Shown one piece after another: positions 1,539 through 14,709 of a stretch of 14,709 bases of DNA. Under the pieces are notes generated by a model. That model made no database searches, was not told where the DNA came from, and was given only the letters and a program-made list of their open reading frames with translations. How positions within the stretch are numbered: position 1 is the first letter of the stretch; each line of letters begins with the position of its first letter. The stretch is from a virus (lineage: Duplodnaviria > Heunggongvirae > Uroviricota > Caudoviricetes). The DNA is taken from IMG/VR virus record IMGVR_UViG_2541047938_000005; one strand, 5' to 3'. Made by a program: the position numbers and the translations under genes.

Positions 1539-1856
1539 GTCAGGAAAGCAGGGGAGAATGCTGCTAGTTGGGCAACTGGTCTTTCTGCTCCAAATTATAA
1601 CAGAGACCAGTTATAGTTTCGGTGCTGTGTTTTTTTTACAATATTGTGATAACACATTGCTGGCGGGAGTTTTGATATTTCTTGGCAGGGGCTGATGATG
1701 CGTTATCCTGATGTCGTCAACTCATATAAAATGAGATGAGAGATCATTGCAGGGTGGTTTGTAATTCGCTGTTTAGCGGGACAATATGTTGTCTGATACA
1801 AGACACCCGACGCCTCAGATTACTATAATAAAGACGAAGCATCCTTTGTATTGACC

Positions 1857-1882
1857 AACCGCCTGTTTAGGCGGTTCTTTTT
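1857..1882 (+). terminator. Intrinsic terminator (candidate tR'-like element)
   Basis: Stem AACCGCC (1857-1863) / GGCGGTT (1870-1876), loop TGTTTA, followed by CTTTTT. A TATAAT hexamer lies at 1824-1829 without a convincing -35. Confidence 0.5.
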
Positions 1883-2414: not shown

Positions 2415-2444
2415 TTGAGCGTCCAAAACAACGGTATATATAAT
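2415..2444 (+). promoter_or_regulatory. Candidate sigma70 promoter for the lipoprotein moron
   Basis: TTGAGC (2415-2420), 18-bp spacer, TATAAT (2439-2444, within TATATAAT), about 30 nt upstream of the GAGGA RBS at 2466-2470. Hexamer reading only. Confidence 0.3.
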
Positions 2445-2473: not shown

Positions 2474-2902
2474 ATGGGTTTTCGTAGCGCATCAATTCTT
2501 ACGTTGATTATTAGTGGGATTATTATCGGGTGCACTGATGCTGTATCGACAAATTATCATGACCGTACATCATATTACTCCGATAAAGCAATAGAGACAC
2601 AGTATGTGAGTTCATCTGAACGTACTTCTGATGTTAGTGAGGATATCCGTCTGTATGCCCATCAAATCAAGAGCGCCATCGAAAAACAGTTCGGGGATGC
2701 GAGTAAGTATTCAGGAAAAGAGTGTACACTGAGAATGCATATGGCCCCGAATGGCCTTCTACTGGAGGTTAAAAGAGAAAGTGGAGACCTCGATTTATGT
2801 CGTGAAGCGATGAATGCGATAAAGAATGCTGATATACCTGCCCCCCCTTCGCCGGAAGTATATAAAGTATTTCAAAATGGGGTGCTGGATTTTAAACCCT
2901 GA
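2474..2902 (+). CDS. Lipoprotein with TolA C-terminal (domain III)-like module
   Basis: 142 aa. RBS GAGGA 2466-2470. N-terminal signal peptide with lipobox IIGC (Cys then Thr at +2, so no Asp Lol-avoidance signal). C-terminal ~85 aa track the TolA C-terminus as I recall it: YAHQIKSAIEKQF / CTLRMHMAPNGLLLEV / DLCREA / IPAPPSPEVYKVF / LDFKP. Confidence 0.8.
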   Translation: MGFRSASILTLIISGIIIGCTDAVSTNYHDRTSYYSDKAIETQYVSSSERTSDVSEDIRLYAHQIKSAIEKQFGDASKYSGKECTLRMHMAPNGLLLEVKRESGDLDLCREAMNAIKNADIPAPPSPEVYKVFQNGVLDFKP

Positions 2903-3052
2903 TATTTATTGTTTTGTAATAAACGGTTTCGGCTTAGGTTTGTTCTGACACAGCTACGGCACTGAGCTAAATTTAGCGGATAGTCAGCTCTGAGCCAGTG
3001 GCGGACGTAACAACTACTATTGCTGAGATTTTAATGGATTGAGGAGCAAGAA

Positions 3053-3448
3053 GTGGGATTAAAGAAAATCGTTATGTTGACTTTTTGGGTCGGTTTTGTT
3101 GCGGGATGCACACCTTTACACCCTTCAGATTGCCACAAAACTACTGCTACAGGTAGTTGCAGTTCAGGACGCTGGGATGATCAGGATGAATGGGGGGCGC
3201 AAGCGCGGGGAATCAGAGCTGCAATTAATGCCAAACTTGATGAGCCGCATAACTGGAAAGGGAAAAAATGCAGGTTGCATATGGAATTCTCTCAGGATGG
3301 CACGGCGTTAAAAATATCTACCAGTAACGGTGATAAAGCCTATTGCGAAGCGATAAAGTCCGCAGCTCATAAAGCCAAATTTCCGGCCTTCAACAATCCG
3401 GAAGTCTACAGAGATTTTCAGAAATCTGGCTTTGACATGCGAGGTTAG
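3053..3448 (+). CDS. Second, divergent lipoprotein with TolA domain III-like C-terminus
   Basis: 131 aa, GTG start 3053 with GAGGAG RBS 3041-3046. Lipobox VAGC with Thr at +2. C-terminus keeps the same scaffold in divergent form (KKCRLHMEFSQDGTALKI ... GDKAYCEAIKSAAHKAKFPAFNNPEVYRDFQ). No obvious terminator between the two genes, so probably co-transcribed. Confidence 0.7.
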   Translation: MGLKKIVMLTFWVGFVAGCTPLHPSDCHKTTATGSCSSGRWDDQDEWGAQARGIRAAINAKLDEPHNWKGKKCRLHMEFSQDGTALKISTSNGDKAYCEAIKSAAHKAKFPAFNNPEVYRDFQKSGFDMRG

Positions 3449-3573: not shown

Positions 3574-3596
3574 AGCTCGCTACGGCGAGCTTTTTA
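3574..3596 (+). terminator. Intrinsic terminator closing the lipoprotein moron
   Basis: Stem AGCTCGC (3574-3580) / GCGAGCT (3585-3591), loop TACG, followed by TTTTT. Confidence 0.5.
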
Positions 3597-3699
3597 TATT
3601 GCATCGTCTCCAGCATATATATCAATTAAGGCTCTGATTGATGTGTCTGAAAGCCTACACATAATAACTATGCCATCCGTTCCGTGCGGAGGTGAGGCT

Positions 3700-3915
3700 A
3701 TGAAATCCATGGACAAAATTTCAACAGGCATTGCCTACGGCACCTCCGCAGGCAGTGCTGGCTACTGGTTTTTACAGTTGCTCGATAGAGTAACTCCGTC
3801 ACAGTGGGCTGCAATCGGTGTGCTGGGTAGTCTGGTATTTGGCCTGCTGACGTACCTGACAAACCTTTATTTCAAGATTAAAGAAGATAAGCGCAAGGCT
3901 GCGAGAGGTGAATAA
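3700..3915 (+). CDS. S: Class II holin (pinholin), phage 21 S-type, with dual-start motif
   Basis: 71 aa: [26 protein letters not shown] ... [20 protein letters not shown]. Two in-frame starts (Met1 at 3700, Met4 at 3709) fit the antiholin/holin pair known for S21. The ORF track's upstream GTG (3643) is probably not the start; GGAGGTGAGG RBS at 3689-3697. Confidence 0.9.
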
Positions 3916-4873: not shown

Positions 4874-5010
4874 AATCTTAACTACAATATGATTCATTTT
4901 GATGATTGTTTCATAAGGAACAGTGAAGTAAGATCTAAGAGGAGTTAAATTTTATACAGTATAATCATAATATTGCAGCAAGGTGGTTATAATTGAAAGA
5001 ATATTTAGAT

Positions 5011-6468
5011 ATGAATACATCTCATGTAAGAGTTGTTACTCATATGTGTGGGTTCCTGGTTTGGCTCTATAGTCTTTCAATGTTGCCACCAATGGTTGTA
5101 GCATTGTTTTATAAAGAAAAAAGCCTGTTCGTTTTCTTTATAACTTTCGTTATATTTTTTTGCATTGGTGGCGGAGCGTGGTATACAACTAAGAAATCTG
5201 GCATTCAATTACGTACCCGTGATGGGTTTATTATAATTGTAATGTTTTGGATTTTGTTTTCTGTTATTAGTGCATTCCCTTTATGGATTGACTCAGAACT
5301 TAATTTAACGTTCATTGATGCTCTGTTTGAAGGGGTTTCTGGAATAACAACAACAGGAGCAACTGTAATTGATGATGTTAGTTCATTACCTCGGGCATAT
5401 TTGTACTATCGGTCACAGTTAAATTTTATAGGTGGTTTAGGAGTTATTGTTCTGGCGGTTGCAGTATTGCCATTATTGGGTATTGGTGGTGCAAAGCTTT
5501 ATCAGTCAGAAATGCCGGGGCCATTTAAGGATGACAAACTCACTCCCCGCCTGGCCGATACGTCACGGACACTGTGGATAACTTATTCTTTATTAGGTAT
5601 TGCTTGTATTGTCTGTTATAGACTTGCAGGAATGCCTTTGTTTGATGCTATTTGTCACGGGATTTCCACAGTTTCGCTTGGTGGTTTCTCAACTCATAGC
5701 GAGAGTATCGGATATTTTAATAACTATTTGGTTGAGCTGGTGGCTGGTTCTTTTTCCCTGCTATCGGCTTTCAACTTCACTCTTTGGTATATTGTTATTA
5801 GCAGAAAAACGATAAAACCTTTAATCAGAGATATTGAACTTCGTTTCTTTCTGTTAATAGCCTTAGGGGTGATCATTGTTACCTCTTTCCAGGTCTGGCA
5901 TATAGGTATGTATGACTTGCATGGAAGTTTTATTCATTCGTTTTTTCTTGCCAGCTCCATGCTCACTGATAATGGTTTAGCTACGCAGGATTATGCAAAC
6001 TGGCCCACGCACACGATAGTGTTTTTGCTGTTGTCAAGTTTCTTTGGGGGATGTATAGGTTCAACCTGTGGTGGAATTAAGTCACTTCGATTTCTTATAC
6101 TTTTCAAACAAAGCAAACACGAGATAAATCAGCTTTCTCATCCCAGAGCGTTGTTGAGTGTAAATGTAGGAGGGAAGATAGTTACAGATCGTGTAATGAG
6201 GTCTGTATGGAGTTTCTTTTTTCTTTATACTCTCTTCACGGTGTTTTTTATACTGGTGTTAAATGGTATGGGATATGATTTTCTTACATCATTTGCAACA
6301 GTGGCTGCATGTATTAATAATATGGGATTAGGTTTTGGGGCTACTGCATCGTCATTCGGAGTGCTTAATGACATTGCAAAATATTTAATGTGCATAGCTA
6401 TGATTCTTGGTCGCCTTGAAATTTATCCTGTTATTATATTGTTTTCAGGTTTTTTTTGGCGCTCCTAA
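5011..6468 (+). CDS. trkG: Trk-system K+ uptake protein TrkG (TrkH/KtrB family)
   Basis: 485 aa from ATG 5011 (MNTSHVRVV...). Multi-pass membrane protein with repeated pore-loop-like glycine motifs (GITTTG, IGGLG, VSLGGF, TCGGIKS). Visibly AT-rich compared with flanking phage genes. trkG is an established Rac cargo gene. Confidence 0.9.
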   Translation: MNTSHVRVVTHMCGFLVWLYSLSMLPPMVVALFYKEKSLFVFFITFVIFFCIGGGAWYTTKKSGIQLRTRDGFIIIVMFWILFSVISAFPLWIDSELNLTFIDALFEGVSGITTTGATVIDDVSSLPRAYLYYRSQLNFIGGLGVIVLAVAVLPLLGIGGAKLYQSEMPGPFKDDKLTPRLADTSRTLWITYSLLGIACIVCYRLAGMPLFDAICHGISTVSLGGFSTHSESIGYFNNYLVELVAGSFSLLSAFNFTLWYIVISRKTIKPLIRDIELRFFLLIALGVIIVTSFQVWHIGMYDLHGSFIHSFFLASSMLTDNGLATQDYANWPTHTIVFLLLSSFFGGCIGSTCGGIKSLRFLILFKQSKHEINQLSHPRALLSVNVGGKIVTDRVMRSVWSFFFLYTLFTVFFILVLNGMGYDFLTSFATVAACINNMGLGFGATASSFGVLNDIAKYLMCIAMILGRLEIYPVIILFSGFFWRS

Positions 6469-14125: not shown

Positions 14126-14709
14126 TGGCATTCAGAATGAGTGAACAACCACGGACCATAAAAATTTATAATCTGCTGGCCGGAACTAATGAATTTATTG
14201 GTGAAGGTGATGCATATATTCCGCCTCATACAGGTCTGCCAGCAAACAGTACCGATATTGCACCGCCAGATATTCCGGCTGGCTTCGTGGCTGTTTTCAA
14301 CAGTGATGAGTCATCGTGGCATCTCGTTGAAGATCATCGGGGTAAAACGGTTTATGACGTGGCTTCCGGCGACGCGTTATTTATTTCTGAACTCGGTCCG
14401 TTACCGGAAAATGTTACCTGGTTATCGCCGGAAGGGGAGTTTCAGAAGTGGAACGGCACAGCCTGGGTGAAGGATACGGAAGCAGAAAAACTGTTCCGGA
14501 TCCGGGAGGCGGAAGAAACAAAAAACAACCTGATGCAGGTAGCCAGTGAGCATATTGCGCCGCTTCAGGATGCTGCAGATCTGGAAATTGCAACGGAGGA
14601 AGAAATCTCGTTGCTGGAAGCATGGAAAAAGTATCGGGTATTGCTGAACCGTGTTGATACGTCAACTGCACCTGATATTGAGTGGCCTACGAACCCTGTC
14701 AGGGAGTAA
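14125..14709 (+). CDS. tfa: Tail fiber assembly protein (Tfa)
   Basis: 194 aa beginning [34 protein letters not shown], characteristic of lambdoid Tfa/TfaR-type chaperones. Start overlaps the stf stop (TAATG). Stop codon is at the window end. Confidence 0.9.

Follow-up and report, generated by a model that had tools for sequence, protein, structure and literature searches.

A lipoprotein gene of a lambdoid prophage and of conjugative plasmids with the fold of TolA domain III, a possible decoy for Tol-dependent invaders

The DNA stretch of 14,709 nucleotides recorded as IMGVR_UViG_2541047938_000005 (Caudoviricetes), referred to here at its full length as the window, is a section of a lambdoid (Rac/mEp460-like) Escherichia coli prophage in which two short genes, gene 1 and gene 2, are located between a Q-like antiterminator gene and the lysis genes. 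Gene 2, the subject of this analysis, is an open reading frame (ORF) of the plus strand (3053-3448) that encodes a protein of 131 amino acids; its translation begins MGLKKIVMLTFWVGFVAGCTPLHPSDCHKTTATGSCSSGRWDDQDEWG and is identical to the one given in the first annotation of this DNA (hereafter the original prediction). As judged from its sequence and that of its relatives, gene 2 encodes a functional, self-sufficient and horizontally mobile lipoprotein, composed of a lipid anchor, a short segment with a putative cysteine ring and a domain with the fold of the C-terminal domain III of TolA (TolAIII). The features of the two genes and their borders are the following:

2415-2444 (+): sigma-70-like promoter TTGAGC-18-TATAAT, found by consensus scan with 10/12 matches, 30 nt 5' of gene 1
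2474-2902 (+): gene 1, encoding a lipoprotein of 142 residues whose TolAIII domain is near-native (PF06519, E 2.4e-23); lipobox IIGC with Cys20
2903-3052 (+): spacer of 150 nt between gene 1 and gene 2, without a terminator
3041-3046 (+): ribosome-binding site (RBS) GAGGAG, 6 nt 5' of the GTG start of gene 2, conserved in plasmid and chromosomal homologues
3053-3106 (+): GTG start and lipoprotein signal peptide of gene 2, residues 1-18, with the lipobox residues V-A-G before Cys19
3107-3190 (+): gene 2 residues 19-46, with the predicted lipidated Cys19, the motif xPLHPS, the putative disulfide ring C27-x8-C36 and SSGRWDDQDE
3191-3448 (+): gene 2 residues 47-131 and stop codon, with the TolAIII fold (alpha1, beta1, beta2, alpha2, alpha3, beta3) and Cys73/Cys98
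3574-3597 (+): intrinsic terminator AGCTCGC-TACG-GCGAGCT followed by TTTTTAT, which ends the cassette before the holin gene (3700-3915)

The signal peptide of gene 2 is composed of a charged n-region (MGLKK), a hydrophobic h-region (IVMLTFWVGF) and the residues VAGC19, which satisfy the lipobox pattern [LVI][ASTVI][GAS]C (rule applied by eye and with a regular expression). Cys19 is nearly invariant across gene 2 homologues. The residue that follows it (+2) is Thr here, the homologues have Ala, Ser or Thr at this place, and none of them has Asp, the inner-membrane retention signal of E. coli; the product is predicted to be a Lol-sorted outer-membrane lipoprotein. Residues 44-125 match the Pfam family of the TolA C-terminal domain (PF06519) with an E-value of 1.3e-14 and 54.6 bits (cutoff 25), and matches to sequences of the Protein Data Bank (PDB) align gene 2 ungapped with residues 341-419 of E. 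coli TolA. AlphaFold2 (AF2) models residues 45-131 with a predicted local distance difference test score (pLDDT) >90, and Foldseek superposes this model on E. coli TolAIII (3QDP) with an E-value of 7e-8, a root-mean-square deviation of 1.1 Å over 83 columns and a template-modelling (TM) score of 0.89, with further matches to 2x9a, 1tol, 1s62 and 4g7x. Cys73 and Cys98, a putative disulfide pair that is invariant in the family, align with C363 and C388 of E. coli TolA. The proposal that gene 2 keeps the domain scaffold of gene 1 in a divergent form is thus borne out, both proteins matching PF06519 and sharing 29% identity in a pairwise alignment (E 2e-18).

Gene 2 has in common with TolA domain III the fold, the order of the secondary-structure elements and the conserved cysteine pair, but it is not a bona fide TolA. 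Its 131 residues include neither domain I, the membrane anchor that couples TolA to TolQR, nor the long helix of domain II; a lipoprotein signal is present instead, from which attachment to the outer membrane is predicted, and the protein could not be energised there. In addition, the side chains of the colicin A (ColA) box and of strand beta3 are replaced, and the gene is encoded on mobile elements, outside the tolQ-tolR-tolA-tolB-pal operon. Gene 2 consequently scores below the cutoffs of the full-length TolA equivalog models NF007065 and TIGR02794 (53.7 bits vs 213 and 47.2 vs 59.45, respectively), with an equivalog match limited to model positions 304-382 of 387. These subthreshold scores, together with the label of incomplete tolA pseudogene that RefSeq (prokaryotic genome annotation pipeline, PGAP) gives to the adjacent gene 1, are what could be brought forward for gene 2 being a decaying or non-functional tolA fragment. 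Hardly any credence can be given to this explanation, as the ratio of non-synonymous to synonymous substitution rates (dN/dS) of gene 2 against 14 homologues is 0.06-0.19, in the N-terminal segment and the domain alike, the start codon, RBS, lipobox and four cysteines are conserved, and hundreds of intact orthologues exist across genera. At the sequence level gene 2 is therefore not the remnant that the original prediction had allowed for. The corresponding dN/dS values of gene 1 variants are 0.32-0.36.

The proposed GTG start and strong RBS are likewise well supported, the start position being occupied by ATG in the plasmid orthologues and by GTG in the Enterobacter and Serratia copies. RefSeq places the start of gene 2 at ATG 3074 (124 residues), a site that reads ATA in pO157 and in Serratia. 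Considering the lipoprotein signals, the RBS and the conservation of the start codon, both the RefSeq start of gene 2 and the pseudogene call for gene 1 look wrong. The conservation at this place extends past the RBS: about 30 nt 5' of gene 2 (3023-3052, CTGAGATTTNAATGGATTGAGGAGCAA) are conserved from the prophage to the plasmid copies and to distant chromosomal ones, and the homology between the spacer and the plasmid copies of gene 2 begins at ~3023. The stretch may act as a small element in regulation or in the control of translation.

Between the lipidated cysteine and the domain, the original prediction saw a linker with extra cysteines. The cysteines are real, with C27 and C36 invariant down to 30% identity in the gene 2 family, but the segment is more conserved than any other part of the protein, and the term linker does not fit it. 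Among 119 distinct homologues, residues 19-46 have an entropy of 0.19 and 68% invariant positions, versus 0.36 and 39% for the TolAIII domain. When distant relatives are added, the stretch from the lipidated cysteine to Pro24 and the C27-x8-C36 ring show weighted entropies of 0.94-1.04 and are the most conserved elements of the protein, whereas the beta2 and beta3 edge strands, with 1.54-1.56, are the most variable. On these alignments, the N-terminal segment is a functionally constrained module and not a spacer. Residues 1-39 stayed at pLDDT <50 in two AF2 runs, one based on an alignment of 35 sequences and the other on a more divergent one of 15, and an alignment-profile search for distant gene 2 homologues returned almost only proteins already found. 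A likeness of SGRWDDQDEW to the two-tryptophan TolB-binding epitope of colicin E9 was not relied on because the spacing of the tryptophans differs and W47 apparently lies in helix alpha1.

The promoter-like site at 2415-2444 is a candidate lysogen-active promoter for the two genes together. The 150-nt spacer contains neither a terminator-like hairpin nor unusual RNA structure (fold z-score -0.42), and a promoter-to-terminator accessory cassette in which gene 1 and gene 2 are co-transcribed is plausible from this layout. Of 80 related viral contigs, 78 have both genes intact; the spacing is fixed in 77 of these, and the remaining one has an insertion between the genes. The pairing is specific to this prophage type and stable there. 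Of 5426 complete E. coli genomes, 774 (~14%) contain the whole of the 1.4-kb stretch that spans both genes, which is 100% identical across many E. coli chromosomes. Among 50,697 deposited phage genomes, a single one carries either gene (mEp460_ev081, again between antiterminator Q and the lysis genes), and the two-gene module is known essentially from prophages.

This arrangement, i.e., adjacent genes on the same strand with fixed spacing, no terminator between them and both intact in nearly all related contigs, is also what would be expected of diverged tandem paralogues acting as an obligate heterodimer, one of the two possibilities originally put forward. The identities over the 89-residue domain argue otherwise: gene 1 shares 52/89 residues (58%) with K-12 TolA (333-421), gene 2 shares 27/89 (30%) with K-12 TolA, and the two share only 25/89 (28%) with each other. 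Because gene 1 is closer to the host TolA than to gene 2, the two are not recent tandem duplicates, and the nearest relatives of gene 2 are its plasmid and chromosomal orthologues (78-89% identity) rather than gene 1. Moreover, each gene occurs without the other through most of its own range, on plasmids, on chromosomes or in other prophages. The gene 1 family is narrow, restricted to E. coli and Shigella, while gene 2 is spread across Enterobacterales; and Stx-phage-like prophages have variants of gene 1 (66-67% protein identity) with no gene 2. These separate distributions speak against an obligate heterodimer, which we consider very improbable.

The other possibility raised at the outset, different ligands for the two proteins, fared better, in that the ligand-binding edges do differ, even if the pair did not arise as a diverged tandem duplication. 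In TolA, g3p, colicin N (ColN) and TolB all bind at strand beta3 of domain III (where D418 and K420 form backbone bonds to g3p), and ColA binds at 375-LLDIKP-380 (PMC4339652). Gene 1 retains the beta3 motif LDFKP of TolA and the ColA box (LLEVKR vs LLDIKP in TolA), whereas gene 2 has FDMRG at beta3 and ALKIST at the ColA box, and differs at all six ColN-shift positions. Since the ligand motifs are replaced in gene 2 and kept in gene 1, different targets for the two proteins are a reasonable assumption, of which this difference is the best support.

The gene 1 variants in Stx-phage-like prophages (L121, 4493-5361; L122-L125, 5001-5429) take the position that stx has in Stx phages, after Q and before a nanS-p-like esterase gene and the holin gene. 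In L121, tRNA-Ile and tRNA-Arg genes are also located between Q and the gene 1 variant.

Outside prophages, gene 2 occurs without gene 1 in two settings. The first is conjugative MPF_I plasmids (IncK2/Z and IncI1/B/O), in which the relaxase genes nikA-nikB (MOBP) are followed after 67 bp by gene 2. Orthologues with 80-90% protein identity are present in about 600 plasmid records, and 488 of 917 matching plasmid records are typed as conjugative. A remnant copy is present on the non-mobilizable virulence plasmid pO157, adjoining a truncated nikB. The fixed position behind nikB and the abundance on conjugative plasmids could mean that gene 2 belongs to the backbone of the I-complex relaxase (oriT) operon and serves DNA transfer or the biology of mating pairs, and that the prophage and chromosomal copies are secondary captures. 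We regard this as improbable, because a protein 78-89% identical is kept in prophages and as a lone chromosomal gene without conjugation genes nearby, and because it is retained on pO157 beside a truncated nikB. TolA is moreover not known to have a role in conjugation, which further counts against it.

The second setting is chromosomal. In 22 of 25 species-representative genomes gene 2 is a lone chromosomal gene without conserved neighbours; the genes around it in these genomes are only generic ones (LysR regulators, short-chain dehydrogenases). The hosts belong to Enterobacterales and include Enterobacter, Citrobacter, Klebsiella, Raoultella, Leclercia, Kluyvera, Pantoea, Serratia and Rouxiella, among others. 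In one lineage (contigs L012/L013, 6001-8736; the source record of the protein is Serratia marcescens) the gene 2 homologue is directly upstream of GmrSD_N (DUF262-type) and HEPN genes. This neighbourhood is defence-island-like and located between nrdDG and arsenic/phosphonate genes.

Gene 2 is also part of a larger group. A scan of 1.84 billion representative proteins returned 130 relatives, of which 72 are 100-170 residues long, and 53 of these 72 have a lipobox-like motif according to a crude pattern; short TolAIII lipoproteins are, by this measure, a broad class. Gene 1 and the other short TolAIII lipoproteins, including a 144-residue 'TolA' of Klebsiella IncF plasmids, share the gene 2-like architecture of lipobox signal, tether of 25-50 residues and TolAIII domain. 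What sets the gene 2 clade apart is the lipoCys-xPLxP-C-x8-C ring and the WDDQDEW motif, neither of which is present in gene 1 or the Klebsiella IncF form. The latter, a third kind of TolAIII lipoprotein, was seen on the Klebsiella pneumoniae IncFIB/FII plasmid pMR0617ctx (L006, 4812-5246), beside a thioredoxin-fold gene. It is 35% identical to gene 2 over residues 51-130 and is found on conjugative MPF_F plasmids. About 310 plasmid records have matches of <60% identity, mostly from Klebsiella among the matches listed. Gene 1 and gene 2 both fall in phrog_5772 (function unknown; E 6.7e-65 for gene 2), and gene 2 has a weak match to phrog_5374 (function unknown as well). A full-text literature search on prophage- or plasmid-borne TolA-like lipoproteins, decoys and colicin tolerance gave nothing on the gene 2 family. 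The family is uncharacterised, and the known kind to which it belongs is that of mobile-element accessory lipoproteins acting at the cell envelope.

What such a protein could do is suggested by the biology of the domain that it carries. TolAIII is the periplasmic handle for group A colicins and for g3p of filamentous phages (PMC4339652; PDB 1tol, 2x9a). The reading that we favour, and to which we would give somewhat less than an even chance, is that gene 2 encodes an outer-membrane-tethered TolAIII decoy that catches Tol-dependent invaders. The protein, attached to the inner face of the outer membrane, would display a look-alike of the TolA tip and bind those parts of the invaders that enter the periplasm before they reach the real, inner-membrane-energised TolA. 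As candidate ligands, colicins of group A and related bacteriocins would offer their translocation domains, and pilus-specific filamentous phages the N1 domain of g3p. The decoy would have no link to the TolQR motor; by catching the ligands as they come in, it would abort import, with tolerance or exclusion as the outcome. In the prophage, gene 2 is stacked behind the near-native gene 1, and the pair would probably cover different ligands rather than form a heterodimer.

Several observations are counted in favour of the decoy, i.e., the TolAIII domain and fold of gene 2, its lipobox with Thr at +2, the purifying selection on it, the conservation of its N-terminal segment, its autonomy on plasmids and chromosomes, the stable pair and bounded cassette of the prophage, the GmrSD/HEPN neighbour, and the breadth of the class of short TolAIII lipoproteins. 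The plasmid distribution fits as well: IncI pili are the receptor for the filamentous phage If1 (PMC7911639), and If1 g3p binds TolA at its C-terminal domain (PDB 2x9a). The pili thus expose cells to a TolA-dependent phage, and the plasmids that create the exposure carry gene 2. That interference at this step can protect a cell is known from the reverse situation, in which pIII-N1 in the periplasm sequesters TolA and produces colicin A resistance and a 4-log lower phage uptake (PMC10424213). Sequestration of TolA by pIII/g3p in the infected cell involves the same g3p-N1/TolAIII axis, excludes filamentous phage and confers colicin tolerance (PMC10424213), but its logic is the opposite one: there a ligand of the invader titrates TolA, whereas the gene 2 copy would titrate the ligand of the invader and leave TolA free. 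Another comparison is offered by the superinfection-exclusion lipoproteins Cor (phi80/N15/mEp phages) and Llp of T5 (bioRxiv 10.64898/2026.03.26.714494). Like the former, gene 2 is an accessory gene in a lambdoid prophage; no sequence relationship to Cor or Llp is detectable, the scan of PHROG families having given only the two families named above. Moreover, Cor and Llp inactivate the outer-membrane receptor FhuA, while the domain of gene 2 copies a periplasmic co-receptor, so that capture by a decoy and not receptor plugging is proposed.

A second explanation that takes the TolAIII domain seriously is that gene 2 modulates the Tol-Pal system of the host, binding the N-terminus or beta-propeller of TolB, Pal or a porin, and in this manner tuning outer-membrane stability, vesiculation or permeability to the benefit of the mobile element, e.g., by aiding outer-membrane disruption upon late-operon read-through at lysis or by adjusting the envelope of a plasmid donor. 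Its position between the Q-like antiterminator and the holin, lysozyme and Rz genes would agree with this, since strong late transcription is expected there, and beta3 of TolAIII is a binding site for TolB too (PMC4339652; PMC8928145). Periplasmic overproduction of TolAIII is known to cause leakage (PMC6195910), a conserved partner in the host would be in keeping with the very strong cross-genus conservation of gene 2, and the invariant Cys ring points to a docking partner that is specific and conserved. However, a promoter-like site and a terminator of its own are typical of accessory genes expressed in the lysogen, lone chromosomal copies under purifying selection would be odd if their sole effect were a weaker envelope, and most of the TolA side chains at the TolB/g3p edge are replaced in gene 2. 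Overall, modulation of Tol-Pal appears unlikely, though it is the main rival of the decoy.

Some of these same points weigh against the decoy. Its mechanism is inferred from domain identity and genomic contexts, and only by sorting rules is the protein predicted to be in the outer membrane. The conservation across genera agrees with a conserved host partner such as TolB, Pal or a porin no less well than with an arms race, and the strands beta2 and beta3, which are the ligand-binding edges in the real TolA, are precisely the most variable elements of gene 2. The Cys ring, which is the most conserved one, has no known counterpart in TolA-ligand biology. No family of the defence-system collection PADLOC-DB 2.0 is matched by gene 1 or gene 2 at E-values up to 1. 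Finally, a decoy might come at a cost, given that E. coli becomes leaky when soluble TolAIII is overproduced in its periplasm (PMC6195910).

A wider form of the decoy reading, which we put forward more tentatively, is that gene 2 represents a widespread and uncharacterised class of mobile-element immunity, namely TolA-tip co-receptor decoys directed against Tol-dependent colicins and pilus-specific filamentous phages. I-complex plasmids would with such a decoy in their relaxase operon offset the phage vulnerability brought about by their own pili, the Cys ring would be a second docking module (e.g., for a porin or TolB entry portal), and prophages would stack two specificities. If gene 2 does act as a decoy, periplasmic co-receptor mimicry would be a new entry-blocking strategy beside that of the receptor-plugging lipoproteins Cor and Llp. 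It would also bear on a possible tolerance to group A colicins or filamentous phages in some E. coli lysogens (the ~14% of complete genomes given above) and in hosts of IncI/K/B/O plasmids, and on what is done by a gene that pO157 and epidemic resistance plasmids carry in conserved form but without annotation. Genes of the gene 2 type could then undermine colicins or plasmid-dependent phages that have been proposed for use against resistant Enterobacteriaceae.

The order of the genes around the cassette in the window is as follows:

Before the Q-like gene: a DUF1367 gene, then a DUF1364 gene
887-1429: Q-like gene (DUF1133)
After the Q-like gene: about 1 kb without long ORFs, then gene 1
2474-2902: gene 1
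3053-3448: gene 2
3700-3915: holin gene
After the holin gene: lysozyme, Rz/Rz1, trkG, and terminase and virion genes

Downstream of the Q-like gene, a promoter-like sequence AAGACA-18-TATAAT is followed by a strong terminator hairpin (1857-1876), the whole spanning 1800-1876 (+); this pair is a candidate late promoter and terminator for Q-dependent antitermination. Further along the stretch without long ORFs, after the Q-like gene but before the promoter-like site of gene 1, there is a match to the Rfam small RNA STnc100 (2177-2363, +; 86.6 bits, gathering score 47). On the other side of the lysis genes, the potassium transporter gene trkG (4993-6468, +; low GC content, 0.33-0.39) is cargo that, as in the Rac prophage, comes after Rz/Rz1 and before a ParB/YnaK-like gene, and the ParB/YnaK-like gene that follows it is labelled truncated by RefSeq. 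At the end of the window, within a tail-fibre-assembly-like ORF, the Rfam RNA IS009 is matched at 14468-14666 (+) with 220.9 bits (gathering score 117).

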